From the NCBI RefSeq assembly GCF_964188315.1, contig NC_135671.1, positions 4,154,001-4,218,000 of the forward strand: a stretch of 64,000 nt of DNA, given 5' to 3'. Below are positions 4,025-46,989 of this stretch, one piece after another (position 1 is the first letter of the stretch; each line of letters starts with the position of its first letter). The DNA is from Podarcis muralis. Lineage: Eukaryota. A program made the translations under genes and the position numbers. The notes below the pieces were generated by a model that was not told where the DNA came from, did no database searches, and saw only the letters and a list, made by a program, of their open reading frames with translations.

Positions 4025-4130
4025 ATCTGAAGTGTATCTGAAGAAGTGTGCATGCACACGAAAGCTCATACCAAGAACTAACTTAGTTGGTCTTTAAGGT
4101 GCTACTGGAAGGAATTTTTTTGTTTTGACT
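4025..4130 (+). mobile_element. Penelope-like element terminal fragment
   Basis: ctgaagaagtgtgcatgcacacgaaagctcatac..ttagttggtctttaaggtgctact is a vertebrate PLE-type terminus. Paralogous to 20574-20680. Confidence 0.75.
4034..4071 (+). ncRNA. Minimal type I hammerhead ribozyme motif (Penelope-associated)
   Basis: GTAT-CTGAAGA-A-GTGTGCATGCACAC-GAA-AGCT-C-ATAC: stem I GTAT/ATAC, core CUGANGA..GAAA, palindromic stem II, self-complementary AGCT stem III, predicted cut after C4067. Confidence 0.75.
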
Positions 4131-27190: not shown

Positions 27191-27608
27191 AGGCATATGG
27201 TCTGTTTTAGCACCATGCAATTTTGCAAGATATTGGCCAAAATTGGTTTTGAAATCACAGCACAATAGCAATTTCGACCCGGCAATATGCAGCAATGTAT
27301 CGCTCCTCACATGAGGGAGACTTGCAGGGCACCCGGATATTCCACTGTGATCTCAGCCAATAACACTGCTGATCTGTAATTTCGTTGTCCCCGAGAGGGC
27401 GCAATGACAATAAAGATTTATTATTATTTATTATTATTATTATCTGAGCTGCCTTCCCTCATGCTGAGGGAAAACAGGGCAGCTGATTACCCTCACTTCA
27501 AGGCACCATGGCACTACCTTCCCCTGGCACTTGTGGGATGTAAAACTGCAGACAAATACAACAGTCCCACAGTGGACATGTTAGGGGATATTTTGTACCA
27601 CTCAGGAG

Positions 27609-27698
27609 CACAGCTGTCAACTTTTCCCTTTTCTTGCGAGGAATCCTATTCGGAATAAGGGAATTTCCTTTAAAAAAAGGAAAACGTGGACAGCTATG
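27609..27698. mobile_element. 90-bp hAT-type MITE
   Basis: TIR CACAGCTGTCAAC / GTGGACAGCTATG; perfect 8-bp TSD CTCAGGAG. Confidence 0.85.
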
Positions 27699-27920
27699 CT
27701 CAGGAGAAGACTTCCTGTTTCCTCCTGAGCTGGGACAGACTTCCACTACATGCGACTTGAAGAGGGTCTGGTCTGTTGTACTAGCATGGAGGAGCATACG
27801 GCCTCCATGTTCTCATCAGTGTGTGTTCTCCATTTTGTATGTTGCTGTGTGTTTGGAAAAGTGACTACTTAGTCGCAGTCACTTGGGACTAACTTCTTTA
27901 TGGCATAGTTCTAGTTGTTA

Positions 27921-28462
27921 TGTAACCTAAGCCTGCCTTCAGGGATATGTCTGTGAACCTGAATGAATCGGTGAGTAAACTACTTTTATATTAACATTAA
28001 TCAGATTCTTGTGTTTATTCTTTTTAAGAGGGAGTAGAAGGGATTTTACCAGGAAGGAATCTTTAATAGTAAGACTCAGATGAGTCAGCAACAAGCTGAT
28101 CGCTGCGTAATTTAAAAAGGGGGATGTTTGGAACTCTGCTAGAATATGGAACTTGCTAGCACAAGCTGGGAAGGATATCATTAAATAATATATCCTCTCC
28201 TGCCTCACTAATCTTCCCCACAGCACTGAGGCAGAGCAGCTTTTCTCAGTCAGCAGAAAAGCAGCAGCAGCCACAGTGGACGTGCATCTTCGCTGGCTGC
28301 CACCTCTGGCTGCTCCACTGACAGCAGCTTGATGCATCCCCCATTCCCTTCCATTCAAACCATGGCGGTGGAGGTGACTCTGCTTCCTCTTCACCCTCTA
28401 CACATCCAATCTCCGTGACTGACCCATCCCTCATCCCCATGCCTCATCTCCAATTTCAGACA
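27921..28462 (-). mobile_element. Solo LTR
   Basis: TG..CA termini, minus-strand AATAAA near 28015, near-TSD TTGTTA/TTGTGA. Confidence 0.6.
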
Positions 28463-28470
28463 TTGTGATA

Positions 28471-28716
28471 CAGTGGTACCTCGTCAAGTGTCTGGGATCC
28501 GTTCCGGAGCCCTGGACGCTCAACGAAAGAGATGCTTGACAGAGCGTCACTCTGCGCGTGGAGCGGTTTAGCGCTTCTGCACATGCGCGAAGCATGATTT
28601 AGCGCTTCTGCGCATGCGCGAAGCAGCAAACCCGGAAGTAACCCGTTCCGGTACTTCCGGATTTGCCACAGACATCCGCCAAAATGGATGATCGAGGGGG
28701 CAGACGTTCAATGATT
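28471..28716. mobile_element. Tigger-like MITE (different subfamily, degraded right end)
   Basis: TA-CAGTGGTACCTC start; internal gcgcatgcgc repeats. Confidence 0.6.
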
Positions 28717-28999
28717 GTATATCAGAATATTGTGATGTTTGGCTGCTGAGTTATAATTGCAGCTGTGTAGCTGAGTCCAACAGACTGAAGCCCCACCCTG
28801 CACCACAGAGAATTAGCATTGATTGCAACATGATTACCGATAGCTTAGCAATTGAAGAACCAGACTGAAACAACTCAGAACATATGGAAAAATAATATCT
28901 GGATGTCTCACAAGACACAGGGGGGCAATTAAAGGCATAAGAAAGAGACACCTTCCAAGAAACGTGGACCCCATTCTTTAATTATTTTAATGACCAAAA

Positions 29000-29600
29000 T
29001 GGGTCAACTTTGTGAGCATGAAATAAAAGTGTTTCATTCACTGTAATATGTATTATTTGCACTGTTTGCTGCCACTGACACACTTTATTTATATGAGAAG
29101 TTCAGAGTACAATACTTCTGCCTTCTCCTTAGAACAGAAAAACTTGTAGAGTGGAGGGAGCTATTTTCATTTGTTGATTTCTGTTCTGATGCAAATCACA
29201 CCTGGAAGCACTCTGTTGCTTAATCTATAATATCTGTTCTGACATCATATTTGCAAATTTTACAGAGGTGCTAAATATCATCTTTGCATCTGGTGTAACA
29301 AACAGGGACCTGTGATTCTTTCAGGATTTGTTTATTTTGATTAATGTCCCCATCCCAGTATTAGTAGTTTCAATCCATCCAAAAACAAGCTGTTTATCAA
29401 ATGATAAGTTTATTGCATTTGTGAGTGGTTCTAATTAGTTTTATAACTAAAAGATTAACTAGTTGGATAATAAAAATGTTAATTTGTGCATGCCAGTAGG
29501 AGGGGTGTTTATAATTACACTTCCTAGAAAAGTAGGAATTGGAGGAATTAAGCATCAGGAAGTGTAAATCCAACATAATTCTTTCTCCAAGTTCTCTGCC
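29000..29600 (-). pseudogene. Orphan TAS2R promoter block with a start-codon remnant and no recognisable receptor CDS
   Basis: Minus-strand ATG CTC ACA AAG TTG at 29019 (cf. MLRKM) with a stop at codon 11; upstream block keeps TATA-like and ATGCAAAT (29189-29196) sites. Confidence 0.65.
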
Positions 29601-29659
29601 TTTATAGAGAGATTTTATGGAAGCATACAGGTGATGCCCCTGCCCTGGGAATTGTAGTA

Positions 29660-30449
29660 CAGTGGTACCTCGCAAGACGAATGCCTCGCAAGACGGAAAA
29701 CTCGCAAGAAGAAAGAGTTTTCCGTTTTTCGAGGTGCTTCGCCAGACAAATTTCCCTATGGGCTTGCTTTGCAAGAAGAAAGCCCATAGGGAAATCTCCG
29801 GGGACCTCTTTTAAAATGCTGGCGGTCGGGAGCAAAGACTTTTGCCCACCGCCGGCCTTCAGAAGAGGTCCTGGACCTCTTCTGAAGGCCGGCGGGGGGC
29901 AAAAGTCTTTGCTCCCCCCCGCCTGCCTTCCTGGGACAGCGGAGACTTCTCCGCTGTCCCGGGGCAATCTTAAAATGCTGGCGGGCGGCAGCGAAACCTT
30001 CGCTGCCGCCCGCCAGCATTTTAAAATCACCCCGGGACAGCGGAGGCTTTGCTGCCGCCCGCCAGCATTTTAAAATCGCCCCGGGACAGTGGAGAAGTCT
30101 CCGCTGTCCCGGGGGCTTTTAAAATGCTGGCGGTCGGCAGCAAAGCCCTCCTGTCCCCGGAGCTTGCGGGGCGGGAGGTGGGGAGAAGGGCTTTTCTTCC
30201 CACCGCCAGCCTTCAGAACAGCCTTCTGAAGGCTGGCGGTGGGAAGAAAAGCCCTTGTCCCCCCCCCCAGCCTTCAGAAGAGGTCGGGGGACAGACTGTC
30301 CCCGGACCTGGTCTGAAGGCGGTTTCCATAGGAACGCATTGATTGATTTTCAATGCATTCCTATGGGAAACCGTGCTTTGCAAGACAAAAAACTCGCAAG
30401 AAGAAAAAACTCGCGGAACGAATTAATTTCGTCTTGCGAGGTACCACTG
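29660..30449. mobile_element. 790-bp Tigger-like MITE with internal palindromes
   Basis: TIR CAGTGGTACCTCGCAAGACGAA / TTCGTCTTGCGAGGTACCACTG with TA flanks. Confidence 0.9.
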
Positions 30450-30914
30450 TACATTCAGGGTGCCAGGTTAGACCAAGGATAGGGAATATCAGTCTCAGGG
30501 ACCCAATGCAGCTGTCCAAGCCTCTTTCTCAGGCCACCCATCTCTACTTCTGATTTTCACTATCCGTTCATTCTTTTTAAGGGTGTTTTTTTAATGTGTC
30601 TTTGGATGGAGAGAAAGTACAAAGGTGGTGGGACAGCACTCATCTCAGCCCTTCTTCCTTGCCCCCTCCCCAATATGCCTCCTCTTTCCATTTTGCTGAC
30701 TGACCTCTCTCCCGCATTTGCACCATGGCTTACTGGCTGAAGACTGAAGTGACTTCCTTGCAAAGCTGGGAGCCTGCCTCGGAGACAGATTCAAACTAAC
30801 ATAACCTTTAAATACACATTTGGGAAAGTGAAATAAACCAAAATATAATTAAATGTGTTTCGACCAGTGGTCCATCAAACATGTACACAATAGATAAGAT
30901 ATGCAAAGAACATA

Positions 30915-31399
30915 CCGTATTTTTCGCTCTATAGGACGCACCCGACCATAGGAGGCACCTTGTTTTAGAGGGGGAGAACAAGAAAAAAAAACTCCCTCTC
31001 TCTGCACAGCACCCCTTCAGCGAAGTGGCAGGAGAAATGGAGCCCCTTCCATTTCTCCCCACGCTTTGCTGAAGGGGTGCTGCGCAGCTCTCCCTCTCCC
31101 ACATTGCCTTCGCCTTCAGCGAAGGCAACCCAAAGCCTCCAGAATGCGGCTTTGGGTTCCTTTCGCTGAAGCCAGGAAAGCGGGACTCTCCCACTGCTCC
31201 CTGAGCAGTGGGGCTGGCGGTGGGGGAAGCCCGGCTTTCCCCCACCGCCAGCCTCAAAGAGCAGGTCGGGGCTGGTGGGGGAAGCCCAAGATCCCCCCCC
31301 CCAGCTCAAGGAACTACACATTCGCTCCATCAGACACACAGACACTTCCCCTTAGAATTTAAGAGGAAAAAAGTGCGTCTTATGGAGCGAAAAATACGG
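30915..31399. mobile_element. Tc2/pogo-type MITE
   Basis: TIR CCGTATTTTTCGCTC.ATA with TA flanks. Confidence 0.85.
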
Positions 31400-32647
31400 T
31401 ACCTATTCAAAACAAAAATTATTAAAATGCTATTAAATAACCAATTTTTTTTACTAAAACAGGCATTGGCCCTCCGTCTCCTTTTGCTATTCCCTCTATT
31501 TTATTTTAAATCTTCATTTAAAAAAAATATGCTTAAAACTGCTGACATATTGATAGACTGTGAACTTTTATTGTGCATGAAAATGGGGTCTACTATTCAC
31601 TGTGTGAATACAGTGTGGGTAAATACTGAATACGGTGCGAATACTGTGTGAGTAAAAAGAGAGAAAAGCAAAGTGACTTTGCAATAGCTATTTTATTTAG
31701 ACATATAAGGTTAAAAACACATGAAGTATCCAAGCAGTGAGACATTTCAGAGGTTCTAGTGCTTTCATGGTTTGATACCTTTCTAATGAAGTCAGTCGCG
31801 GCTTGCTGGTATTTTATTATTTAGCAAGATGGAGGCAGAAGACAGGTGAAAGCATTAAACACCCTAACGTGTCTCATAGCTCTTGGCTCCCCAATCAGAC
31901 TTTCAGAGAGACGGCTAGCACCATCAGCTCCTTTCAGAGAGCAGCTGTCTGTCCACTCTCTGTCTCTCCCCCAGACCCAGCCCATTTCAAAGAGTTGGTC
32001 TACGTACACATTCACGCTTTAAAACGCAGCAAGTTTATTCCCGTCTCCCACTGCATTTCAAGCCACATTCTTCTGTTGCAGCACATTTCCCAAAGATGTG
32101 GGGACAGGGTGAAGCCCTCCCCCCAATCTTGAGGGGCCAGGCCTCCCCAGGCATCCCCAGGGTGGCGTTGAGCCTCATAGTACCTCACGGTCTCCTCCTG
32201 ACACATGTGATGTCACACACACACGCCAGAGGTTCCCGATGTCAGGCGGAACTCAGCATCTCTGCCAACTGGGTGCAGGGGCCCTGCCAGATGCACTATT
32301 TATTCCCCTGGTGCAGACCCAAGCAATGCTTGCCCATGTGGCTGGACCCTTCCCTGGAGAGGCACTGTTTGTCAACCTCCCTGTGATGGGCCATTTTACA
32401 GGCAAGGTTGCGATCTGGAAATTCCTTTGGCATAATAATAAGTGTTCAGTTTTGACATAATAGTGAATCATTAAGCAAGCAGAGTACATATAGTATCATA
32501 AAATGAAGACTACGAGGGCATACGCAGCAGGAAGTTCTCCTGTGCAAACTTCCTTCCAATGGCTTGCCAGTCTTGACCAGGAAAGCATCTGGTAGACTGT
32601 CCTCAGTGTACATGTGCACATGCACACCAACAGAGAGGCAGGCAGTA

Positions 32648-32878
32648 CAGTGGTACCTTGGGTTAAGAACCTAATTCGTTCTGGAGGTCCGTTCTTAACC
32701 TGAAACTGTTCTTAGCCTGAGGTACCACTTTAGCTAAAGGGGCCTCATGCTGCCGCCGCGCAACTTCTGTTCTCATCCTGAAGTAAAGTTCTTAATCCGA
32801 GGTACTATTTCTGGGTTAGCGGAGTCTGTAACCTGAAGCGTCTGTAACCTGAAGCATCTGTAACCCGAGGTACCACTG
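32648..32878. mobile_element. Tigger-like MITE
   Basis: CAGTGGTACCT..GAGGTACCACTG with TA flanks. Confidence 0.88.
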
Positions 32879-32945
32879 TATTGTTCTTCCAAATGAGGAT
32901 GCCATTTCCATAAGGTCCTGGTAGCCTTTAAGATGGTGTCTTTAT

Positions 32946-33857
32946 TCAGCATTGCAGTTGATGTAGCATCTTGATTGATTCCTGTTTCAGTTTAGGATTC
33001 ATGAAGATCAAGATAACGGCATGGCCAGAGGAATATGCAGCAAGCACATTAAACAAATTTATTGTTACCCAGTCATCTTTAATGTCCATCAAGGACAGGA
33101 CTATGTTCAAAAACTCCACACAAAAACTGGATACATAGAGAATGGAGAAAGAAGCCAGAGCTTTGATGGCATTCAGGTGAGCTTCTGTGCTGACATCCCT
33201 TGCGCTGTTTTGTAGAAGATTTTTGTGCCTCCACAGGGAAATTAGCACTAAGACAGATGAGGACAAAAAAACCACAAAGGAAAAGAAATCTGGAACAATA
33301 TAAAGATGGATGAGATACTTACAGAAGTCAGGCATTACATTTCCCGAATTACTGTTATTGCTTAGATGTGATTCAAATAATCTACATTTAGACATGACAG
33401 TACTGCCTGTTATTGTGACAGTGGTGGTGATCGCAGAGAAGACCACAGTCCCCAGAAGCAGCCAAGGCACCAGCTCAGGGACTCTCCGCTTCATTTGCAG
33501 GAAGAGAGGGTGGGAGAAGTTAGCGATTTTTACGCAGTACAAAACACTGAGCCAAGCGGCAAACCAAAGGTCAGCAGTATTAACAAACAGCCATGAGGCA
33601 TCAAATGCAATAAATACGTCCCTCTTCTGAAAAGTGTCCTTGAAAAAGAGGAAAAAAATAGCCGTCAGTATCGCAATGGCAAGAAATGCAAATCTGAACA
33701 AGCCAAGACAACTCAGGATCATGTCGGCTGGGGATAGTTTTCGGCTTCTAAACCAGTCAAGGAAGTTAACGATAGCAATGAATCCATTTCCCACCATTCC
33801 TGTGAAGGTCACAAAAACGAGAAGGACAAAGTTGAACAATTCAAGTAAGGTAGACAT
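32946..33857 (-). CDS. TAS2R: Bitter taste receptor, copy 7 (303 aa)
   Basis: Intact 7TM ORF starting MSTLLELF. Confidence 0.95.
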   Translation of the reverse strand: MSTLLELFNFVLLVFVTFTGMVGNGFIAIVNFLDWFRSRKLSPADMILSCLGLFRFAFLAIAILTAIFFLFFKDTFQKRDVFIAFDASWLFVNTADLWFAAWLSVLYCVKIANFSHPLFLQMKRRVPELVPWLLLGTVVFSAITTTVTITGSTVMSKCRLFESHLSNNSNSGNVMPDFCKYLIHLYIVPDFFSFVVFLSSSVLVLISLWRHKNLLQNSARDVSTEAHLNAIKALASFSILYVSSFCVEFLNIVLSLMDIKDDWVTINLFNVLAAYSSGHAVILIFMNPKLKQESIKMLHQLQC

Positions 33858-33979
33858 CTTTGTAAGTACAAAATAACAGTGTTTTTCCCCACTGTAATAT
33901 GTTAAATTTGCACCGTCTGTTACTGATGCTGCCCTTTATTTATTTGAGCAATGTAGAAACCGTCTGTGTAGATCGGGAA

Positions 33980-34223
33980 GCTGAAGAAGAATTTCGATTT
34001 GATATCCCGCTTTATCACAAGCCGAAGGAGTCTCAAAGGGGCTAACAATCTCCTTTCCCTTCCTCCCCCACAACAAACACTCTGTGAGGTTAGTGGGGCT
34101 GAGAGACTTCAGAGAAGTGTGACTAGCCCAAGGTCACCCAGCAGCTGCATGTGGAGGAGTGGAGACGCGAACCTGGTTCACCAGATTACGAGACTACCGC
34201 TCTTAACCACTACACCACACTGG
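33980..34223 (-). mobile_element. CORE SINE (Squam3-like) inside the copy 7 promoter
   Basis: Reverse complement of the 7887-8125 family. Confidence 0.85.
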
Positions 34224-34437
34224 TAGAGAGTGAAGGGAGCTATTTTTATTTGTTGATTCTGTTCAGATGCAAATCACACCTGGAAGCATTCTTAGTAATT
34301 CAATATCATCTCTTCTGATATTTGCAAAATCCGCAGTGGTGCTAAATATCATATTGGCACCTGGCTTAACAAAGAATGATATCATTCTTTGTTAAGCCTG
34401 TTGTAAACAAAAACTGCTCCCTTTCCCTTATGAGGTA

Positions 34438-34663
34438 CAGTGGTACCTCTGGTTACGTACTTAATTCGTTCTGGAGGTCCGTTCTTAACCTGAAACTATT
34501 CTTAACCTGAAGCACCACTTTAGCTAATTTGGCCTCCCGCTGCTGACGCGCCACCGCAGCACGATTTCTGTTCTCATCCTGAAGCAAAGTTCTTAACCCG
34601 AAGTAATATTTCTGGGTTAGCGGAGTCTGTAACCTGAAGTGTATGTAACCCAAGGTACCACTG
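34438..34663. mobile_element. Tigger-like MITE
   Basis: CAGTGGTACCT..AGGTACCACTG with TA flanks. Confidence 0.88.
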
Positions 34664-34689
34664 TACACAAGAGCCCTTATAGAGTCCTT

Positions 34690-35437
34690 TGTAGGTTCTC
34701 CATCGGTAGGAGAAAATAACAGAGGCCAACCAGAGAATATTGAGAAGCAAAGCAGCTAGTAAGCCTGATCTTTATTAAAGCTGTTGCAACAGGATCTCCC
34801 CCCACACACAGGACAGAGGAGGAGGACACCAAACCATGAGCACAAGCCCTTATATAGACTTTTCAACTGCCCACCCTGGAGCCCAAGACCACCCCTCCAT
34901 ACATCATACATACCGTATTTTTCGCCCTATAGGACGCACCGTCCCATAAGGCTCACCTAGTTTTTTTGGGGGGGAAATAAAGGGGAAAAAATTATTTCCC
35001 CCCCAGGCGCGGGGCTGGGGCGGGGGAGGCCCGAGCTTCCCCCGACCCCAGCCCCCAAACAGGCAGCTCTCTGCAAGCTGTAGGAGCCCAGCGCTGGCTG
35101 GGGAGTGCTCCCGCTGCTTGCGGAGAGGTCCGCGAAGCCTGGAGAGCGAAGCCTCTCCAGGCTTCAGCGAAAGTCTGCATTCGCCCCATAGGACGCACCC
35201 AGATTTCCCCTTCATTTTTGGAGGGGAAAAAGTGTGTCCTATAGGGCAAAAAATACAGTACATCACAGAAGGGGTGTAGCCCAAGACCAACCCCCCAGTA
35301 CATCAGAGAAGGGACGGACTACAACAGAAATCTGAGTGCGTTTTTAACCTGTCTGCCAGGTTACCTGATTGGATTACCTGGGCATCCTGGCCACTCTTTT
35401 GTTATGATAACTACTCAATTCCTGAATCCAGGTCACA
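34690..35437 (-). mobile_element. Solo LTR-like element containing a nested MITE
   Basis: TG..CA ends; minus-strand CCAAT, TATA and AATAAA in LTR order; no clean TSD. Confidence 0.5.
34913..35258. mobile_element. Tc2/pogo-type MITE
   Basis: CCGTATTTTTCGCCCTATAGG TIR with TA flanks. Confidence 0.85.
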
Positions 35438-35640
35438 GGCTTACTTTATTCATGTCTTAACTGTGCCCTTGAGACAGGATTTGTGAGCAAAGAGACAATG
35501 AGGAGGTTCCCCATTTCCTTTGACCTTGCAGAGAAATATTTGAGGACAATTTGGAAGAGACAAATGGTTTCAGAACTTTTTCTGTGAGGTTTCAGACATG
35601 TGGTTTATACATTTATGTATGTGCTTGCTTGGTACATTTA

Positions 35641-35643
<3 letters not shown>

Positions 35644-35687
<44 letters not shown>
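35644..35687. repeat. (TA)n microsatellite
   Basis: About 22 AT units. Confidence 0.95.
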
Positions 35688-35690
<3 letters not shown>

Positions 35691-36671
35691 CTTAAAATTC
35701 TTATAACAAGGCAGATGCCAATGTGATATTTGGCATCCGAAGAAAACCGGGGTGTTCAAGTTGAAGATCCACCACACACAAAGGCTGATTTCCCCACTTT
35801 CAGCTCACTCTTTCTATTCTCATTTCAATGTTGCTTGCTCTCTTTGAGGCATATATTCCACAAGTGAATTGACCATTTAAGGAAAGGGTCATAGACATTA
35901 AGAAATGCCAACAATTTTACAGCTCTGATTATTCATACGCCAGCCACCTCAAAATGTGTAAATTGGAGAACGTTAATATGGCTATCTGATAGCAAAAGAT
36001 GGAACTGAAGTGTAACATTAACTGCTGGAATGATTGCTGTTCAGTTTCCACATAAATCATTAAGCAAACACAGTAAACACCAGTGCTTTTTTCTGGGGGG
36101 CACTCTAGGGCAAACAAAGGGAGTGTTGGTGGCCCATACACCCACAACATTTATTTGGTTGGTGCTTAGCACCCAAATCGTGGGGCCTTTGATGCAACTT
36201 CTGATGCTTTGTGGGGCCTCGAAAGTCAAATCAGAGGCCTCATAGGGCCTTGGAATCCATATCCGAGGCCTTGCAGGGCCTTGGAGATATTGTCCGAAGC
36301 TTCACAAGGCCTCCAATGCAACTTTCGGGAGAAACTGGAAGTTGTGTCCAAAATTTGCATCGAAGGCCTTGTGGGACCTCAGAGATCATGTCTGGTTTCC
36401 CCCAGAAGAAACTTTGGACACAACTTCCAGGGGTCTCAGGTGCCACTGTGGCGCACATGACGTAATGTGACACCGTGGCGTCACGTTGTAACATGAAATT
36501 ATGATGTCATGTTGAATCACATGCGCCGCTGGGCACACATAATTTGGGGCATAAGAGGGTGTCCCTGCTCAAGGGTACACAGTACCAGAACCTTTGCAAC
36601 AGAGTATAAAAACAAAGGCAGACTTCAAGGTCATACCTGGCAGAATGGCATATCCCTCAGAATGACACAAT

Positions 36672-36830
36672 GGGTCAGTGAGTCTAATCGGTGAGTGCAT
36701 CTGGCTGTTAACCAGGAGATTGGTGGTTCGAACCCACCCAGGGACAGCTGTGGGCAGGATTCCTGTACTGCAACGGGTTGGACTTGATGCCTCTCAAGGT
36801 CACTTCCAACTCGACAATTCTAGGATTCTA
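36672..36830 (+). mobile_element. tRNA-headed SINE with CR1-type tail (paralogs at 40242-40380 and 49136-49273)
   Basis: B box ggttcgaaccc; tail cccttccaactctacaattctaggattcta. All three copies share flanks, so this is one insertion duplicated with the gene unit. Confidence 0.7.
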
Positions 36831-36929
36831 TGTCTGCAAGGGCTTGGCAGTCTTATGCAGCAGAAATTCTGCTAAACTGTGTCCTCAGCACATGCATGAA
36901 CCTGCTCACTCACAGGCAGACAATATAGT

Positions 36930-37649
36930 TGTGGATCGAGGGCCTGACCCCCGCTATGTGAAATAAACACACAAGGACACGTGATATAAGGTTGATGGGC
37001 AAGAAAAGGCCACAACTTTATTGATTACAACAGTGAAAAGGTATTGGCTTAGGCATTGGATGACTATAGGAGGTGGGTTTATTCAACAGTAGGTAGAGCC
37101 TGTTGATGCCAATCCAACTATAGGCTCACCCCCTGATGTCACCAAGGGTCGTGCCATGGCCTCCCGCCAAGCAGGCATCGGACGGAATACACGACCGCCA
37201 GATTCCTTTAACGGAATAACCCACGGTAGATAGCATAGGCGATGGCCACACCTAGCCCTTGACACACATGAATCCAGTGCCTAACCTACCCACCAATACC
37301 ACAAAAGTTGTGACGATTGCTACGAGGTAGGCGAAAAAACCAAAAAGCCTAATGCCAAATGGAAAAATTCCTACCAGGCCCCCCAGACAACCGGGGCGAC
37401 CAACCTAAGGTCCACAGCAAGGCCAAAAAACCTAGACCCTGAGCTAAATGGGAGTGGAGGGTGGGTGACTCGCTGCAGGATGACAACAACTGAGGAGGAG
37501 GCAGAGCTGGAACCGCAGCATTAAGCTGCTAAACACGCCCCCCGGAGACACCTGGTTGGCTGCCTCCGGTGGGCGTGGGCGCCACCCAGGTGAGGAGGGG
37601 CGGGGGCTAAGGCCCCCGGCCAGGGGCGGAGCTCGGGCTCCCGCCCACA
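36930..37649 (-). mobile_element. GC-rich solo LTR-like insertion in the copy 8 3' flank
   Basis: TG..CA ends, minus-strand AATAAA near 37017-37022, absent from the copy 9/10 flanks; no clean TSD. Confidence 0.55.
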
Positions 37650-37797
37650 ACCACTCCCCTCTCTTCCAGGGAGGAGAGTCTTTCTTGCAAAAGAGAAGGC
37701 AGAATTGGTAGCGAACAGAGAGATAGGCAGCATTGTTCTTGCAAATGAGGATGCCACTTCCAGAAGGTCTTGGTAGCCTTTGAGATGGTGGCGTCAT

Positions 37798-38712
37798 TCA
37801 GCATTTTAGTTGATGTAGCATCTTGACTGATTCCTGTTTCAGTTTGGGATTAATGATGATCAGGATAATGGCATGGCCAGAGGAATATGCAACAACCACA
37901 TTAGTAAGAAAAAGGTGCATCCCAATGCCTTGCATGCCATTCCAAGAGAAGAGCACTGCCATTCTTTCCACAAAAAAGCTAGATACATAGAGAATGGAGA
38001 AAGAAGCCAGAGCTTTGATGGCATTCAGGTGAACTTCTGTGCTTACATCCCTTGCACTGTTTTGTAGAAGATTTTTGTGCCTCCACAGAGAAGCTAGTAG
38101 TAAGATGGATGAGAACAAAAATATAATGAAGGGAAAGAACTCTGGAACAACATATAGAAGGATGGAATGCTTACAAAAGTCAGATGTCTTCATTTCTGAG
38201 TCAGTGTTATTGCTTAGAAGTGATTCAAATGTCTTGCATTCAGACATGAGTCTAATGGTCATTATTGCCTTGATGGTGGTAGTGATTGCAGAGAAGACCA
38301 CAGTCCCCAGAAGCAGCCAAGGCAACAGCCCAGGGAATCTCCGCTTCATTTGCAGGAAGAGAGGGTGGGAGAAATTGGCAATCTTTACACAGTACAAAAT
38401 ACTGAGCAAAGCGGCAAACCAAAGGTTAGCAGTATTAACAAATGTCCATGAGGCACTGTATGCAATTTGTACGCTCCTCATCTGAAAAATATCTCTGAAA
38501 AAAAGGAGAAGAATTGCATTCTGTATACCAATTGCATGAAATGCAAATCTGAACGAGCCAAGACAACTCAGGATCATGTCGGCTGGGGATAGTTTTCTGC
38601 TGCTAAACCAGTCAATGAAGTTAATGATAGCAATAAATCCATTCCCCACCATTCCTATGAGGGTTTCAATAACCAGAAGAATGAAGCCAAACAATTCTAA
38701 GAAGGTAGACAT
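37798..38712 (-). CDS. TAS2R: Bitter taste receptor, copy 8 (304 aa)
   Basis: Intact 7TM ORF from ATG 38712 (MSTFLELF); the longer ORF-track start is not ATG. Confidence 0.95.
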   Translation of the reverse strand: MSTFLELFGFILLVIETLIGMVGNGFIAIINFIDWFSSRKLSPADMILSCLGSFRFAFHAIGIQNAILLLFFRDIFQMRSVQIAYSASWTFVNTANLWFAALLSILYCVKIANFSHPLFLQMKRRFPGLLPWLLLGTVVFSAITTTIKAIMTIRLMSECKTFESLLSNNTDSEMKTSDFCKHSILLYVVPEFFPFIIFLFSSILLLASLWRHKNLLQNSARDVSTEVHLNAIKALASFSILYVSSFFVERMAVLFSWNGMQGIGMHLFLTNVVVAYSSGHAIILIIINPKLKQESVKMLHQLKC

Positions 38713-39056
38713 CCTTCTGAGCCCGAAGTAAAAGTGTTTCTTCCAGTGTAATATTAGCACAATCTGCTGCTTATGCTGCCTTGTATATGCGCAGTGGAGA
38801 GCAGAATACGTCTGCCTTCTTTCAAGACCAGAACAATTTGCAGGGAGAGGACCGAGCTATTTTCAGTTCTTGATTTTACTCAGATGCAAATCACACATGG
38901 AAAAATTCTAATCCTAAATCTATATCATATTTTCTGCTGTCATATTTGCAAATTCGACAGTGGTGCTAAATATCCTCTCTGCATCTGGCTTAACAAACAA
39001 TGATAGATGATTCTATTATGATTTCTATATTTTGATTATTGTTTGTTCACCACTAT

Positions 39057-40138
39057 TTAACATCTCAAGATTGTCCTCCTCAATATTGGATTCAGAGCAC
39101 CACCCACATGTGTAACAGCCTGCTCCAGCCAGCCAACATGGCAGCTGCCCTTCACTCCCCACCTGGAGTTCTCCCCACTTCCTGATTCTTCTTCCCAGAA
39201 ACCCCTGCTCTCAAAACCTCTCTTGTAAGACCCCTCTTCCTGTGGTGACATCTTACCCTGGTAACCTCCCTCTGTGCCTGGTAGAGCCTTCTGTCTGGTT
39301 GATGCCTTCCCTTGAGGGACTAATGGCTGACATCAGCTGCATTGTTTCTTCAATGTCCCACCATCACCAGGCTGGCCCCATGAGAAAGATAGCCAGTGTT
39401 ATTCCTTGCTTAGTCCAGGAATCCATGAACACTGACTGTGCTGGTCCCGTGGGTTACCCGAGAGGCGAGGTCCAAGTCCGGTCCATGGTCAAAGGTGCAA
39501 CGTGGAGGCAGTCCGTAGTAGCTGAAGCTGGGTGCAGGGCAGGGAGCTAGGTGAAGTCAGGAACAGGCTTGCAAGCAGGGAGCAAGGGTGGGTCAGCAGC
39601 TCAGGCAGGAAAGCAGGACAGGGTTCAGGCAGGAACTAGTAACCAACAGTGTTGCTCCCACAACTTGGAACTGGGGCTGGCCGGCTTTTATCTGCCCTGA
39701 GGCATAGGACGGCCCCAATCCTCTGGTGAGTCGCCTCTCCTGACCTGGAGGCGAGCACTCCTCCTGCGGGAACTTAGTTCCCTCCAACTCTCTGCCCTGA
39801 GCCTCTACAGCTCAGTAGAGGCTGGAGGGTTACCGGACCCAGAGGCAACCTCCTCTTCCTCTGACGGGGCTGAGAGTGGAGCAACTGCAGGCAATGGGTC
39901 CTCCATCACCTCAGGAGCCAGAACAGACTCAGCTGGTGCCTGCACCTGAGGATCCAGCACAGGTGAGGACCCTTCAGGCTCAGGCTCAGGCCCCAGCCCC
40001 AGCTCAGCTGGATCTGGAGGCGGGGAATCCTGTGCAGGCTGGGATCCCTCAGGTTCAGCATCCGAGTCTGAATCCCAGGCCATCACACCGACCCTTCACT
40101 GAATGTAGAGATTATGAGGAGCCCCCCCATTTATAACA
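39057..40138. mobile_element. Older LTR-like element (paralogs 48544-49008, 50683-51120), here interrupted by a younger LTR
   Basis: TGTTA..TAACA termini in the 50683 copy; similar right flanks in all three copies. Confidence 0.5.
39437..40087 (-). mobile_element. Solo LTR (651 bp) carrying a U3 reading frame
   Basis: TG..CA termini; 5-bp TSD CTGAC/CCGAC; the empty site is seen in the paralogs at ~48950 and ~51060. Confidence 0.88.
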
Positions 40139-40511
40139 TTATTTTAAAACTTCATTTTTTAATAAAGAATTTCCTTAAAACTACCAACCTAACCTCAAGG
40201 GCATACCCAGCAGAATGGCATACCCTGCAGAATGACACAATGGGTCAAGGGAAGCAATGGGTGAGTGCATCTGGCTGTTAGCCAGAAGGCTGGTGGTTCG
40301 AACCCACCCAGGGACAGCTGTGGCCAAGATGAGCTTCGGGGTCCCTTCCAACTCTACAATTCTAGGATTCTAGGATTCTATGTCTGCAAGGCCTTGGCAG
40401 TCATGTGCAGCAGAACTTCTGCTAAACTGTGTCCTCAGCACATGTGTGCACCTGCACACCCACAGGCAGGCAATATAGTTCTTGCAAAAGTGTTGGCAAA
40501 ATTGGTAGCCT

Positions 40512-41444
40512 TTAAGATAGTGGCTTCATCCAGCATTTTAGTTGACGTAGCATCTTGAGTGATTCGTGTTTCAGTTTGGGATTAAGGAAGATGAGGATAA
40601 TGGCATGGCCAGAGGAATATGCAACAACCACATTAGTAAACAAAAATTCCATCCCAATGTCTTGCATGCCCGTCCAAAACGAGAACATTGCCAATGTTTC
40701 CACAAAAAAGCTAGATACGTAGAGAATGGAGAAAGAAGCCAGAGCTCTGATGGCATTCAGGTGAGCTTCTGTGCTGACATCCCTTGCAGTGCTTTGTAGA
40801 AGATTTTTGTGCCTCCAGAGAGAAGTCAGTAGTAAGATGGAAGAGATCAAAAATATCATGAAGGGAAAGAAATCTGGAACAACATATAGAAGCATGGAAT
40901 GCTTACAAAAGTCATATGTCTTCATTCCTGAGTCAGTGTTATTGCGTAGAAGTGATTCAAATGTCTTGCATTCAGACATGAGTCTAATGGTCATTATTGC
41001 CTCGATGGTGGTAGTGATTGCAGAGAAGACCACTGTCCCCAGGAGCAGCCAAGGCACCAGCCCAGGGAATCTCCGCTTCATTTGCAGGAAGAGAGGGTGG
41101 GAGAAGTTTGCAATTTTTACACAGTACAAAACACTGAGCAAAGCGGCAAACCAAAGGTTAGCAGTGTTAACAAATGTCCATGATGCACTGTTTGCAATAT
41201 ATACGTTCCTCATCAGAAATTTATCTATGAAAAAGTGAAGAAGAATTTCATTCTGTATCCCAATTGCATGAAATGCAAATCTGAACAAGCTAAGACAACT
41301 CAGGATCATGTCAGCTGGGGATAGTTTTCTGCTGCTAAACCAGTCAGTGAAGTTAATGATAGCAATAAATCCATTTCCCACCATTCCTATGAGGGTTTCA
41401 ATAACCAGAAGAACGAAGCCAAACCATTGAAATAAGGTAGACAT
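40512..41444 (-). CDS. TAS2R: Bitter taste receptor, copy 9 (310 aa; apparent chimera of copy 8 and copy 10 types)
   Basis: Intact 7TM ORF from ATG 41444; C-terminus ..LKCWMKPLS. Confidence 0.95.
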   Translation of the reverse strand: MSTLFQWFGFVLLVIETLIGMVGNGFIAIINFTDWFSSRKLSPADMILSCLSLFRFAFHAIGIQNEILLHFFIDKFLMRNVYIANSASWTFVNTANLWFAALLSVLYCVKIANFSHPLFLQMKRRFPGLVPWLLLGTVVFSAITTTIEAIMTIRLMSECKTFESLLRNNTDSGMKTYDFCKHSMLLYVVPDFFPFMIFLISSILLLTSLWRHKNLLQSTARDVSTEAHLNAIRALASFSILYVSSFFVETLAMFSFWTGMQDIGMEFLFTNVVVAYSSGHAIILIFLNPKLKHESLKMLRQLKCWMKPLS

Positions 41445-42483
41445 CCTTCTGAGACCGAAGTACAAGTGTTTTCTCAAGGTAATGGGTAATATTAGCACAG
41501 TCTGCTACTTATGCTGCCTTTTATATGAGCAGTGAAGAGCAGAATACTTTGCCTTCTTTCGAGACCAGAACAATTTGCAGGGAGAGGAACGAGCTATATT
41601 CAGTTGCTGATTTTGCTCAGATGCAAATCACACATGGAAAGATTCTCTTCCTAAATCTATATCATATTATCTGCTGTCATATTTGCAAATTCAACAGTGG
41701 TCCTAATATCCTCTTTGCATCTGGCTTAACAAAGAATGATAGATGATTCTTTTACCATTTCTATATTTTGATTAATGTTTGTTCACCAGTATTTTTATTT
41801 TTAATCCATCTGAAAACAGAGATGTTTATCAAATGATTTAATAAAATTTATTGTGTCTGTGAGGGAAATTGTTCTAATTGGTTAAAGAGATAAAGCAGGG
41901 TGTTTAATTATGTAGGCCAATAGGTGAAATATTTAGAGTAGTATATTTTCTTTAAAAAGTGGAAACCAGAGGAATTAAGAACAAGGAAGCTGTGCAATGG
42001 TATGTGCCAATATGGACTTTTTCTGTGGTTTATTTCTGTAGATCATGACGCCAATAAAGTGAGATGGTGATGAGAGCAACATTTGGTGGAAAACTCAGAA
42101 TGCGTCTGACCAAACACCGGATAGATCCGCTTTGAGGACCTATTCTGTGGTAGTGAGTGAAGAAAAATCTTTTTTCTCTGCCTCCATTGCGTCAGGAACA
42201 AGGAGTCATCCCTGAAGGTCACTGGATCCACCTATCACGGATTTATAACAGTTGGCCTTGACACCAGACTTTTGGGTGGGGTGGAGAGGTTTAAAGGAGA
42301 AAAATAAAATGGTTTGATGTGAATGAATTTTGGACTAGGGGGAGTTGAGGGTTTAGTTATTTTGTTTATTTGTTAAGCAGGGAATTTGAGTATCGCTTTG
42401 TTTATTATTAGAGTTTTTTAATATAAATGATATATGAAATGTTAATGTATAATATTATTCCCCCCATTTTCCTCCCTATAGTA

Positions 42484-42487
42484 GTGT

Positions 42488-42531
<44 letters not shown>
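42484..42531. repeat. (TG)n microsatellite
   Basis: About 24 TG units with one interruption. Confidence 0.95.
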
Positions 42532-42532
<1 letters not shown>

Positions 42533-42914
42533 GCTGTACGTCACTTGGAGACCTTTGGATGAGAAGTGACTAATGTTTAATAAATGAATGAAATGAATTA
42601 ATGCTTCGAGTGGTCAGGGGCCTTTTAACCTCTGGCCCACATGAGGAGAATTTAGACTAAACGATGGCCCATGGTGAACAATTTGCTCAGCGCTTCACTG
42701 TCAGAATCACTAAGATCTGTTCTGACTTAGACACTATTGTGGAGATTATGTTTAATGTCACACTAAATGCTATATTTTAGTAGTATTGTATTCAAGAATG
42801 TAGGCAGTATTTTCCCAGATGGCTGGTGTTTGTCCACTCAAGGCTGTGGCACGCTACCTTGTTTTATGTCTGGATCACGAGTTAAATCACAAGGCAGTGA
42901 TGAGAGAAGCTATA

Positions 42915-43523
42915 TGTGATGGCCTGGGATTCAGACTCGGAGGCTGAACCTGAGGAATCCCAGCCTGCACAGGATTCCCCGCCTCCAGAACCAGCTGAGC
43001 CGGGGCTGGGGCTTGAGCCTGAAGGGTCCTCACCTGTGCTGGATCCTCAGGTGCAGGCATCAGCTGAGTCTGCTCTGGCTCCGGAGGTGATGGAGGACCC
43101 ATTGCCTGCAGGTGGCTCCACTCTCAGCCCCGTCAGGGGAAGCTGAGGTTGCCTCTGGGTCTGGTAACCCTCCAGCCTCTCCTGAGCTGCAGAGGCTCAG
43201 GGCAGAGAGGCGGAGGGAACTAGGTTCTCTTAGGAGGAGTGCTTGCCTTAAGGCCAGGAGAGGCGAGTCACCTGTGGGCCAGGACTGCCCTAGGCCCCAG
43301 AGGAGATAAAGGCCAGTCAGCCCAGTCCCAGGTTGCGGGAGCAACATTGTTGGTTGTCTGTTCCTGCCTGCACCCTGTCCTGCTTTTCTGCTTGAGCTCC
43401 TGACCTCACCTGACTGCCTGCCTTGGACCCCGCTTCAGCTTTGATGGACTGCCTCCATACCGCACCCTTGACCTCAGAATGGACTCGGACCTCGCTTCAT
43501 GGTTAACCCATGGGACCAGCATA
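42915..43523 (+). mobile_element. Solo LTR (609 bp), same family as 39437-40087
   Basis: Starts TGTGATGG, ends CCAGCATA; perfect 5-bp TSD CTATA. Confidence 0.88.
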
Positions 43524-44648
43524 CTATATGTCTTTGCTAGTGTTTTATATACAGATGAAGCTGCTTGCATCACACAGACACACATAGAATGCCGTGTGGT
43601 GCTTGGTCATTGAATGTTGGCTGGTATGCGGAAAGAGGAAGAGGGAGAAATAATATTTTGATTTTATTTTTAGTTGGAAAGCTACTTTTTAGTAAAAGAG
43701 GTTTAAAGGCTCACACTGGCACCAGAGTGAGGCAGTTTGTGAGACAGAAACCAATATCTTTTGTAATGTAAACATTTAATACTAAGTCCTGCAAGTAAAG
43801 CCTTATAATTACTTGTGTTAAAGAAGTTTGATTTCTGCGCAAGAGTCAGATCAGAGATCTTCTACTGGCACTATAACTAATAGCAATAGTTGATACAGAT
43901 CCACCGGATGTAGCTTGGGTCTCTGCTTGTCCAGTGCTAATGGATACTTTCCAATGCGGTAGGATCACTGGAATTGTGAGATCTACTACACGTGTGCCAG
44001 ATCCTTGCCCTTTATGACTCATTGAAAGGGCCAGCAGGGGATTGGCTGAGTGGGTGAAGGGAGTGGTCAATGCTTCCTCCCTCTCCACCCCAATAGAGTT
44101 TATTAAAGCCTAAAAGAAAATATACAAAAAATAATATCAAATATATTTTATGGTGCAAAAAGATAAAAGAAACTAAGATAAATAAATACAAATACAAAGG
44201 GGGGAAAAGAGGAAAGAGGGGGAAGGGAGGGCTTCAAAATAATAGAATCATAGAAGGAACTCTGGATAGATCTACACTCATAGTGTGTTATTAAAATGTG
44301 ACGCCAGAGTGCAAGCCACCAACAAGGGGAAACTGCCATTGAACCTTACAGAACGTTCAATTTAATAATGTTTAGAAGATCAATGTAGATCCACCCTCTG
44401 TCAACTATAGTTTAATTTTTTAAAAAACCTTTGCTCCAAGGCAACACCAAACTATTCTACTTTATATAAACGAGTATTTTCTTCACTCCTCAAGCCCAAA
44501 TGTGATAAGTTCCTTTTCCATGCAAAAAGTCCACAGAGCGTTTCCAATCGTTAATCAATATCAGCAATGATTTTTCTCTAGTTAAACATGTTAACTTTGC
44601 CATCTCAGCCAAGTCCAGGAATTTCAGCAGCCGTTCCTCTGTAGAATG

Positions 44649-45624
44649 TGTCAGGGACTAGACTGAGGGAGACGAGACGGAGGAGGAATGGTGAAGATTG
44701 TCCCCCTTCCTCCTGAACTTCCCAGAGAAGAGCAAGGCAGTATTGAAGCACAGCAGTGGTTTGAAGAAGGTCCCAGCTCAGAGACTGGTGAACAGAAGAG
44801 TTGGGAGGTGTTGGGAGAAGAGAAGGGGGAGCTAGAGCAGCCAGCCAGGGCCGTCTTACCCATAGGCGCTAGGGGTGCAGGGCACCCAGGTGCCGGGCTC
44901 TCAGGGGCGCCAGGTCGAGAATCTGGGGCCCAAGAGTTGAGTCTGGGGAAGAGCCCGTCCATCGGTCAGAGCACTGCATCAGGCTCTTCTGCTGCGGGTG
45001 GCTCTGTGCTGCAAGTTTGGGGGCGAGCAAGGCAGCGAGGCACTGAGGTGGCCAGCCAGCTCCACCCTCCTATGCCCCTGGGCTTGGTGTAGGGCCATGG
45101 AGAGGCCTGCCCAGTGCACGCTGCTTACACCATGAGGTGCCCGGCTTCACTCTGTTGCCAACGCCAACACCTCGGGCTGGTTTGTTGCTCTGGGCTCCTC
45201 TGCTGCTTGCATTGGTTGCCCAACCCCCTAGGCGCCTGACAACTCAGGGGAACATTTCCTAAAAAAAGGTTGCACCCCAGCACCGCATATGCTTAAGACA
45301 GCCCTGCAGCCAGCTGACATGTTATCACTGGAGAGCATTTCTGAGCCCCCTTCTCCTATAACTCAGTGTGCATCGAAAGTTGAAGAATGAAGGGCTCAGA
45401 GACAATGAGCCCCTGGTGGCCACCATAATGGGAAGTGCTGTTACTAGGAAGAGAGGGGGGAGGAGCTCAGTTGGAGCAACTCTATTTTTAGGAAGGCTGC
45501 ATTCTTTCATCGTTCTCTGTGAATTATTGAATAAATGGCTTGGTAAGAACTCTTATCGTTTCTCTTCGTTTCTCTGATTCTGGGCTGCCCCGTGGGAGGG
45601 ACTTGATTTCCCCAAAGCCTGACA
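44649..45624 (+). mobile_element. Solo LTR (~507 bp without the nested MITE)
   Basis: TGTCAGG..CCTGACA termini, AATAAA near 45530; TSD degraded. Confidence 0.75.
44846..45306. mobile_element. hAT-type MITE nested in an LTR
   Basis: TIR CAGGGCCGTCTTA / TAAGACAGCCCTG; perfect 8-bp TSD CAGCCAGC. Confidence 0.9.
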
Positions 45625-46212
45625 GTGGGTAATGATGAATCTTGCCATCTTTATGCGTATAAACACCTTTATACATTCTAAATTATTTTGCCGGAGTTAA
45701 ATACCAATCATATGCCATTTTATAAAAATTCTGTTTAAGATCATGACGTAGTGTAATTTTTAACCCTTTAGTCCGCATATGTTCCTACTGTTCCATCTCT
45801 ATATTTTAACCATTTTTTGCCCATTTAATATACATTATTTAAGTTGTTCTTGCATTTCAAATTTCAACAAATTTTAACATGTTCATCTGTGCATAGTTAT
45901 ACAGATCAAAATCTTTCTTTGTTCTATACCAGAAGTTTTTAAAATTGAACTTATATCTCTCTACTAGATGCGAAAACCACTCAAATCTATAACCTTCCAC
46001 TGTCAACTATTCCCTGGTTTTAACTTTTGATTGATTGATTGAATTTGTATACCACCCAAGTCCCACAGGTCTCAGGACGGTCACAATATAAAACCACAAA
46101 ATACATAATTTCCTGGATGCAACTGTAGTCATTCTTGCTAGGTCAACCATTTCTTTTTGCCGGTCACTTCTTTTCCATAGAGAGCTTCTTGTGGTGAAAT
46201 CCATAAAGGTGT

Positions 46213-46989
46213 TGTCAGGGGCTCAGGAGCAGAGGCGCAGGGGAGAGAGGAAATGGAGAGCGAAGGGGAGGAATCTGAGGGCAGCGGAGAGCAGAATGAC
46301 AGTGACCCGAGAGATTCCATGAGCCTCTCCAGTGAATCAGAAGATTCCCAGAAGGGGGCGCCGATGGCCAGGGCAAGGGGGGTCCCAGGGGGGACACACC
46401 AGAAGCAGGGGGCCAGCGGAGACTCCCAGAGCAGTAGCTGGAAATCAGGACCAGCTTCCCCACCGGAGCGTAGTGGTGGGGAAGAGTCCCATAGGTCAGG
46501 GCCAGTGTCTCCTCCGGCAAGCAGGGAGGAGGAGTCAGGCCCAGCTAGCGTTCCCGAAGAGGGGAGCAGTGACAGGAGCAGTATAACGGTCAGAAGGAAG
46601 GTGGCAGGCTGGGCGCGCGCGCCAAGTTCAAATGTACAGGCGAGCCGGACAGCAGGAAGCCCGGATTGGGAACCAGGTCCTAAAGCCCGCCGGAGGGAGG
46701 GGGAAGACTCGGGGGAGTCAGCGTCAGAAGAGTCTAGAAAGGGGAAAGCCCCGACGGACAGGCGGACCCAGAGGAAAAGGGAGCAGAGAAAGAGGTGGAG
46801 CAAGGCTAGGGTCTTAAACTGGTGTCTGGGGGGAGGAGACTCAGACGGAGCTTCAGCGGTCTAGCGTTTAAGACGTAGAGCTGCGCGCCGTGGCTGTAAA
46901 TGAAAAACTGGACTTCAATAAAGACTATTTAATATAGCAACGGACTGGCGTTGGTCCTCTGTGAGCTGGGACCTGAGGCAGCCCTGACA
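46213..46989 (+). mobile_element. Young solo LTR (777 bp)
   Basis: Perfect 8-bp inverted termini TGTCAGGG/CCCTGACA, perfect 5-bp TSD GGTGT, AATAAA at ~46917, many CpGs retained. Confidence 0.92.
46253..46864 (+). CDS. Hypothetical 203-aa acidic, Ser/Gly-rich protein with a basic C-terminus, encoded in LTR U3
   Basis: ATG with G at -3 and +4; frame open from LTR base 2 to TAG 46862-46864. No recognisable domain and no expression evidence. Confidence 0.35.
   Translation: MESEGEESEGSGEQNDSDPRDSMSLSSESEDSQKGAPMARARGVPGGTHQKQGASGDSQSSSWKSGPASPPERSGGEESHRSGPVSPPASREEESGPASVPEEGSSDRSSITVRRKVAGWARAPSSNVQASRTAGSPDWEPGPKARRREGEDSGESASEESRKGKAPTDRRTQRKREQRKRWSKARVLNWCLGGGDSDGASAV

Follow-up and report, generated by a model that had tools for sequence, protein, structure and literature searches.

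Open frames in lizard solo LTRs as the fossil of a Pol tail that crosses the polypurine tract into U3

Several solo LTRs in a 64,000-nucleotide stretch of the Podarcis muralis genome (contig NC_135671.1, positions 4,154,001 to 4,218,000, forward strand; hereafter the window) carry an acidic open frame in phase 2, and blastn of the plus strands found no notable similarity between the LTRs of the different families. This raises the question of what such a frame encodes and why it occupies the same phase in each family. The original prediction proposed a conserved accessory gene that reads across the polypurine tract (PPT) into U3, seen in five LTRs of distinct families. Our findings support the conserved coding frame, its passage through the PPT in several squamate LTR families and its maintenance by selection. 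The frame in the solo LTRs is the fossil of pol that ran through the PPT into U3, most likely the end of the element's own integrase and not a separate gene.

Three families in the window make up the acidic-frame group. Family A is represented by a solo LTR of 777 bp on the plus strand (46213-46989) with a 5-bp TSD, whose parent is a Tf1/sushi-type Ty3/Gypsy chromovirus. Its phase-2 frame (46214-46864, plus strand) comprises 216 codons, acidic and Ser-rich and then basic; in the parent element this stretch makes up the C-terminal portion of the Pol (integrase) tail. A TATA-like element (LTR nt 600) and an 11-nt stretch that pairs with the PBS (LTR nt 631) both fall within the coding frame (46812-46853, plus strand); the transcription start at LTR nt 631 was inferred from self-priming, and the frame ends about 20 nt beyond it. 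Family B contributes two LTRs on opposite strands, which at 81% identity represent a single family: one of 651 bp on the minus strand (39437-40087, position 39437 being its 3' end), with a premature stop at codon 94 followed by an RRSARL motif, and one of 609 bp on the plus strand (42915-43523), with an intact TSD and a frame that shifts past about 76 codons to stop at codon 77. The family stop lies at a TATA-like GATAAA box, where the frame of the solo copies ends. Family C is present as a degraded plus-strand LTR (44649-45624) split by a 457-bp insertion with terminal inverted repeats (44848-45304, no strand assigned); this copy has a stop at codon 4 and its acidic frame has moved to phase 1. 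Better-kept copies retain the succession of acidic stretch, P-x-S-P and basic stretch, and across the other copies the frame stays open for as many as 121 codons, with a median of 47 (n=29 of 30).

The remaining example, position 27921, lies in an unrelated solo LTR with a TSD (27532-28222, minus strand, 691 bp) that has no long acidic frame, its phase 2 being shut at codon 22 in the window copy and in nine of ten further copies. An adjoining degraded fragment on the same strand (28223-28462), with a short acidic, Pro-rich reading and no match among the loci collected in the analysis, is the probable source of this example. The five proposed instances in distinct families are thus reduced to four LTRs in three families, with the frame degraded in family C. 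The LTRs at 8133, 34690 and 36930, positions that mark the 3' ends of minus-strand LTRs, have, in the sense direction, no acidic phase-2 frame of any length, in accordance with their use as negative cases in the original prediction.

Among genomic copies picked by similarity to the window copies, phase 2 of family A is open for at least 200 codons in 20 of 30, and phases 1 and 3 are mostly shut at 21 and 35 codons. In family B, 30 copies were fetched and 28 parsed, of which 19 keep phase 2 open for at least 125 codons, with phases 1 and 3 mostly shut at 10 and 0 codons. Given this choice of copies, and because many of those from family A share contig C20 and are apparent duplicates, the counts do not represent independent events. 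Only phase 2, the phase of pol, is open, and it is common to the families because the PPT|TG junction is read by Pol. The U3 tails, about 60 to 216 codons long, are not alignable at the DNA level between families. DNA alignments between distant subfamilies were unstable.

The parents of these lacertid solo LTRs are Tf1/sushi-type Ty3/Gypsy chromoviruses rather than ERVs, the two classes between which the original prediction had sought a decision. Pfam searches on four elements (L031, L124, L127 and L138) returned the order PR-RT-RH-IN-SH3(-chromo) together with a Ty3-type capsid and a Tf2-like SH3, and the ORF map of L031 places gag first, with no env. Neither the retroviral gag/pol/env organization nor the tRNA PBS of ERVs was found in the parents, which leave no room for env. 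The chromodomain (PF00385) scored above the cut-off in L124, L127 and L138 and is listed for the UniRef protein P0001 of family B; in the family-A element L031 it was not called, and a degenerate chromodomain copy aligns. The PBS can pair over 10-11 nt with LTR sequence, indicative of self-priming, in five of the six elements tested, the LTR end of the sixth having been mis-set. In a quick RT-IN tree of 26 rows, none of them a named sushi-ichi or Tf1 reference, families A and B and their sister families cluster (SH-aLRT 94) and are joined by a frog protein and four further proteins (93). A PPT-pattern search for a full-length family-C parent gave nine matches and no parent; the only match with pol upstream, L227, belongs to another sister family.

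Upstream of the PPT, family B and the sister families read from pol straight into the frame; family A is mixed. In all ten family-B loci, SH3, chromodomain and LTR phase 2 lie in a single frame without stops, and P0001 presents chromodomain and tail as a single protein. Among the sister families, a stop-free frame from SH3/chromodomain to phase 2 was present in 15 of 17 whole elements with a junction (20 fetched). It was also present in 12 of 22 SH3-match loci with a junction (30 fetched, some overlapping the whole sister elements). Similar acidic-then-basic tails follow the chromodomain in an amphisbaenian and a viper protein (P0030, P0067). Automatic UniRef models already include the tail without comment. 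The case is weak for family A: the frame is continuous across the junction in seven of 30 mostly broken copies, six of them sharing one shortened U3 variant on C20, and in 23 of 30 junction loci the reading is interrupted somewhere from chromodomain to U3. It is also continuous in the older family-A subfamily L032, and the last 31 codons upstream of the LTR are in frame in 18 of 28 parsed junctions. No family-A copy was seen open from protease to U3 stop, and L031, the sole copy with an unbroken pol (1322 aa), stops before the PPT. A third ORF arising from a stop-start junction after pol was considered from L031 alone and rejected, the stop being missing in 27 other parsed junctions. In the parent element, pol continues past the chromodomain, through the PPT and most or all of U3, such that the 3' LTR also encodes part of an integrase tail of low complexity that is probably disordered, and the solo LTRs retain its phase-2 frame.

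No single motif is common to all the tails. The family-B tail matches the HMGN consensus RRSARLSA at seven of eight positions, all three arginines included, and has no FxGF. Of the family-B loci, nine of ten full-length ones and 19 of 30 solo ones contain RRSARL. The family-B chromodomain is intact, with the cage aromatics that are missing in the FxGF clade. In the sister families, which have lost the chromodomain cage, two tandem helix-acidic linker-FxGF motifs sit directly before the PPT, outside the LTR. Both FxGF-type motifs have near-invariant Phe and Gly in 11 aligned elements that are 40-69% identical in this region (one pair 96%), and the sequence anatomy of 11 sister elements includes the putative hydrophobic helix anchor, the acidic linker of 8-16 aa with Ser/Thr and the FxGF by which a TIM is recognized. 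Family A has a single degenerate FxGF, a Ser/Thr-rich, non-acidic linker and no RRSARL. A motif pattern, written after the sequences had been seen, gave two matches in four of seven tails, one in two and none in one, and in this post hoc comparison none of 5000 shuffles had two matches. In four elements an L-x-x-W motif, which may be promoter-driven, shares its position with a TATA-like element some 30 nt upstream of the inferred start.

This motif anatomy suggests that the tail most likely helps the integration complex to enter the nucleus and to be tethered to chromatin. The basic run after the S/T-P site would carry the complex into the nucleus, where short host-like motifs would attach it to chromatin. 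In family B the attachment would be made by an HMGN-type RRSARL arginine anchor, and in sister families without the chromodomain cage by the tandem TIM-type FxGF motifs; such look-alikes of host motifs may steer where new copies land. Taken as a whole, a Pol tail through U3 with import and docking as its likeliest job is an explanation in which we have considerable confidence. More tentatively, and with rather less than even expectation, the tail of squamate Gypsy chromoviruses, encoded in part by the 3' LTR, could be a swappable docking module of host-mimic motifs. One clade would then have exchanged the methyl-lysine cage for tandem TIMs that tether integration to LEDGF/HRP2, which lentiviruses also use and which would have been reached independently, and another would have added an HMGN-type acidic-patch anchor in U3.

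The U3 part has a dN/dS of 0.17-0.39 in seven of seven subfamily pairs, compared with 0.06-0.19 in the integrase core, and substitutions fall 44/31/85 by codon position (five disjoint pairs, p=3e-7), with 30/29/71 between family A and its older subfamily. The U3 tail is under purifying selection at the protein level. A Pol tail that is tolerated as a spacer, from which selection only removes stops and in which it keeps charge, with motif matches as accidents of a purine-rich promoter, would accommodate the varying tail lengths (62-216 codons), the lack of DNA-level alignment between families, the overlap of L-x-x-W with the TATA-like box, the short read-through tails that are all the fish relatives have and the family-A U3 frame, for which Pfam returned no match. 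We nonetheless regard it as unlikely, given dN/dS well under 1 with third-position bias, the near-invariant Phe and Gly of both FxGF motifs despite the overall divergence of the region, and the position of these motifs outside the LTR.

An alternative or additional role of the U3 frame as an accessory protein of its own, with nef/sag-like placement and translated from a spliced transcript or from one initiated internally, appears improbable to us and is most plausible for family A, in which an in-frame ATG lies inside the PPT, a splice-donor-like sequence directly follows the 5' LTR and the U3 frame is far better kept (20 of 30 open) than its continuity with pol (7 of 30). In family B, the LTR starts with an in-frame ATG. 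However, the junction of the sister families lacks an ATG, the families have no conserved start codon in common, the donor-like sequence and the self-priming PBS overlap, and family-A copies are broken all through pol, beyond the junction too. No GT-AG joint on the family-A element was seen in three raw RNA runs, of each of which 6-12% was read at an internal depth of 0-3, and one contig set; there were no RNA records among the listed holders of the element. Raw reads cover the family-A LTR to a depth of up to 269 and continue into unrelated flanks at its edge, with internal coverage almost nil, a pattern in keeping with solo-LTR read-through that carries no information about the expression of Pol. 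On present evidence the accessory gene of the original prediction is thus better described, in full-length parents, as the in-frame Pol C-terminus. Stops are scarce in purine-rich DNA and codons for Glu, Arg and Gly frequent, but an open frame arising merely as a non-coding by-product of a G/A-rich U3 is exceedingly improbable and largely refuted by the dN/dS values and codon-position counts, since only the pol phase is open and substitutions pile up at its third positions.

To our knowledge, few tests have addressed how vertebrate Gypsy elements choose their insertion sites. The lizard families described here, which are young and abundant, single out the LEDGF/HRP2 TND and the nucleosome acidic patch as candidate host surfaces, both assayable with short natural peptides, and the docking reading predicts clade-specific insertion maps. 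If the TIM reading is true, it would represent a retrotransposon route to the HIV tethering factor, independent of lentiviruses, and a vertebrate parallel to plant CRM elements, which swapped the chromodomain for a new targeting segment. Annotators should take the open frames of solo LTRs of this kind for Pol tails rather than for new genes. The literature covered, outside which lay Repbase entries and most subscription journals, held no description of reptilian Pol tails encoded by U3, nor of TIM or HMGN motifs in retrotransposon integrases; the motif content of the tail looks undescribed, whereas Pol entry into the 3' LTR is already known from plant CRM.

Lentiviral nef and MMTV sag also cross the PPT into the U3 of the 3' LTR, as separate genes on spliced RNAs; the lizard frame shares this path but is continuous with pol. 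HMGN, Dsup and Dot5 share the nucleosome-binding motif RRSARLSA, as described in parts of PMC12487698 and PMC13347269; unlike theirs, the candidate motif of family B is encoded in U3 at the integrase end, and it is absent from the other families. TIM/IBM motifs of JPO2, IWS1 and KMT2A bind LEDGF/HRP2 (PMC9987994), and in its passages on viral hijackers of the TNDs that paper names lentiviral integrases and leaves retrotransposons unmentioned. The putative lizard motifs resemble those it describes in their apparent hydrophobic anchor, acidic linker of 8-9 residues with Ser/Thr, FxGF and tandem arrangement, and differ in their place on a retrotransposon integrase. As in group A of the plant CRM elements, where relevant sections of PMC3059260, PMC3605345 and PMC6317226 describe Pol entering the 3' LTR (CR motif/CHDCR), lizard pol extends into the 3' LTR. 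Unlike that group, which has a tRNA-Met PBS, the lizard elements are vertebrate Tf1/sushi-type elements with a PBS self-complementary to the LTR, an intact chromodomain in family B, and FxGF motifs before the PPT and not in the LTR. With Tf1/sushi vertebrate chromoviruses (fish P0029 and P0131, frog P0003; sections of PMC6317226 and PMC3601003) they share domain order, chromodomain, self-priming PBS and a TGTYA-type LTR start, and pol of the fish relatives also appears to run briefly past Gly-rich PPT codons, the LTR edge there being inferred. In contrast to other Tf1/sushi vertebrate elements, one squamate clade combines a degenerate chromodomain with an acidic linker of 80-150 aa, and squamate tails are long (about 60-216 U3 codons), acidic and then basic, and reach the promoter.

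The original prediction, that five LTRs of distinct families in the window share an acidic frame in phase 2 (the frame opening T-GT at the LTR start), is borne out in part. The five LTRs fall into four families, and a long phase-2 frame is present in three of them, here called families A, B and C. It is absent at position 27921, which sits within a 691-bp LTR flanked by a target-site duplication (TSD), where phase 2 ends at codon 22 in the window copy and in nine of ten other copies. Three control LTRs read in sense carry no such frame. Family A is represented by a solo LTR of 777 bp (46213-46989, plus strand), which has a 5-bp TSD and 216 open codons in phase 2, family B by two damaged LTRs that are 81% identical to each other (39437-40087, minus strand; 42915-43523, plus strand), and family C by a degraded LTR interrupted by a 457-bp insertion (44649-45624), whose frame reaches 121 codons in better-kept copies. 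In family A phase 2 stays open over 200 codons or more in 20 of 30 copies, and phases 1 and 3 usually end at codons 21 and 35; in family B, of 30 copies fetched and 28 parsed, 19 have it open over 125 codons or more. These counts are not independent, because the copies were selected for their similarity and many of those from family A that lie on one contig (C20) look duplicated. A further LTR family, adjoining the 3' LTR of a family-A element (L031:661-984, minus strand), has an acidic-then-basic phase-2 frame of 102 codons.

The parents are Gypsy chromoviruses, not ERVs. L031, a full-length family-A element, holds gag and pol with Ty3 capsid, protease, reverse transcriptase (RT), RNase H, integrase (IN) and Tf2-like SH3 domains, and a chromodomain scored in three elements of sister families, which have two FxGF motifs before the polypurine tract (PPT) and have lost the chromodomain cage. 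In a quick tree that included no named reference element, family A joins the sister families (SH-aLRT 100), with family B adjoining them (94); RT-IN identity between A and B is 50%. In five of six elements the primer-binding site (PBS) is complementary over 10-11 nt to a site inside the LTR, which is the self-priming arrangement reported for the Tf1/sushi group (PMC6317226, in part). Dozens of copies of one Gypsy family on three contigs of the lizard genome all share a pol frame length of 1374 codons, and this family moved very recently, since two examined copies have 100% identical LTR pairs.

The separate accessory gene that had been proposed is unsupported; instead, the U3 frame is the end of Pol, with SH3, chromodomain, PPT and U3 in one frame. 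No stop interrupts this frame in any of the 10 family-B loci. Of 20 whole sister elements fetched, 17 had a junction and 15 of these are free of stops; of 30 SH3-match loci fetched, some of them the same as the whole elements, 22 had a junction and 12 of these are free of stops. In several sister elements the two LTRs are 98-100% identical, and a pol ORF of 1322-1420 aa terminates within the 3' LTR. The stop falls 19-22 nt past the inferred transcription start in family A and in elements L124, L127 and L140, and just upstream of a TATA-like box in the one full-length family-B element tested. A UniRef model (P0001) already joins the family-B chromodomain and tail in one protein, uncommented.

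The U3-coded part has a dN/dS of 0.17-0.39 in 7/7 young-subfamily pairs, not all of them independent, compared with 0.06-0.19 for the core integrase. Substitutions in U3 are distributed 44/31/85 over the three codon positions in five disjoint pairs (p=3e-7), and 30/29/71 between family A and its older subfamily. The dN/dS values and codon-position bias therefore indicate that the tail is selected as protein, and we consider it likely that the U3 frame is a genuine part of the integrase, a selected tail with a role in the nucleus or on chromatin.

In the tail an S/T-P site precedes a run of Arg/Lys, an arrangement that resembles a nuclear-import signal and may serve nuclear import. The L-x-x-W motif of the U3 tails lies across a TATA-like element, and promoter function may be what preserves it. 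The family-B chromodomain retains three cage aromatics (cage as in the available text of PMC3605345), and its U3 encodes RRSARL in 9/10 full-length and 19/30 solo loci; in HMGN the consensus RRSARLSA engages the acidic patch of the nucleosome through an arginine anchor (PMC12487698, PMC13347269, in part). In the sister families the first and third cage residues are missing, and two motifs lie between chromodomain and PPT, each made up of a hydrophobic anchor, an acidic stretch of 8-9 residues that includes Thr/Ser, and FxGF, whose Phe and Gly are near-invariant across 11 elements. These tandem helix-acidic linker-FxGF arrays (L138:6483-6686, plus strand; L124:2352-2561, minus strand; nine other loci) belong to young Gypsy families that the window does not itself contain. 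Their anatomy is that of the TND-interacting motif (TIM), in which FxGF is essential for binding LEDGF and HRP2 and tandem copies are common, according to the portion of PMC9987994 consulted. Both LEDGF-family genes are present in the lizard genome (Pfam), and the tandem motifs would be a candidate LEDGF/HRP2 tether. Judged from sequence, the specific LEDGF/HRP2 and acidic-patch claims are tentative and somewhat improbable. The FxGF pattern was drawn post hoc, with two matches in only four of seven tails tested, and there is one degenerate copy in family A and none in family B. That the tail is a motif-free spacer is a serious rival to the docking reading.

Family A is the weaker case for the Pol tail. 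The junction is continuous in 7 of 30 loci, six of these being one C20 variant; of 28 junctions parsed, 18 keep the final 31 pre-LTR codons in frame, and the remainder differ by the length of a G-run. The frame is continuous in the older subfamily (L032), pol is broken throughout in the five whole family-A copies examined, and the L031 pol stop precedes the PPT. A separate accessory protein in this family is possible, given that the PPT contains an in-frame ATG and that a donor-like site follows the 5' LTR, but RNA reads, of low internal depth, contain no spliced joint. The family-A LTR is well covered by reads of three RNA runs (X23, X24, X21), which pass the U3 edge into a small set of unrelated flanks that recur, marking these as solo LTRs within host transcripts. 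A large part of the best Gypsy matches, including repeated family-A units with identical flanks, falls on contig C20 (30 Mb), which may be a W chromosome.

Among the best 150 matches of a profile search, 139 have the chromodomain core and 83 a tail of at least 45 aa, many of the latter being gene-model artefacts. Acidic-then-basic tails follow Gly-rich, PPT-like codons in Rhineura floridana (P0030) and Vipera latastei (P0067), with LTR edges inferred. The FxGF pattern occurs in three of the 83 (P0011, P0012 and, from Podarcis, P0017), and a second search for this clade matched only Podarcis or close relatives. Fish proteins have short read-through tails: six fish-type pol proteins (P0029, P0039, P0049, P0069, P0091, P0131) end 25-30 residues beyond Gly-rich PPT-like codons with a recurring R-x-x-S-P-x-F/Y motif, which suggests a short conserved LTR-coded tail in these chromoviruses.

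The window itself, from a 1.5-Gb genome, is a tandem cluster of about a dozen bitter-taste-receptor-like ORFs of 310-330 codons each, some broken (5974-61168, minus strand), which resemble TAS2R receptors. The closest named proteins to a retroelement and to a host exon come from Podarcis muralis, at 99-100% identity, which makes the host a lacertid lizard. An intronless ORF with Gly/Arg-rich ends (3486-4097, plus strand), similar to the H/ACA protein GAR1, is probably a processed pseudogene, and broken ORFs with RT-like and recombinase-like pieces (54477-58747, plus strand) resemble a DIRS-type element.

The literature searched, which took in PMC3601003 but not Repbase or most subscription journals, yielded no description of long Pol tails coded by U3 in reptiles and none of a TIM or HMGN motif in the integrase of a retrotransposon. 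Host mimicry by an integrase tail is offered as a testable hypothesis. In plant CRM group A, Pol enters the 3' LTR and encodes a targeting segment there (PMC3059260, PMC3605345, in part), and acquisition of an LTR-coded targeting segment has been linked to chromodomain loss (PMC6317226, in part). The lizard elements resemble this group in that their Pol also enters the 3' LTR; however, their self-priming PBS sets them apart, and they are not members of it.
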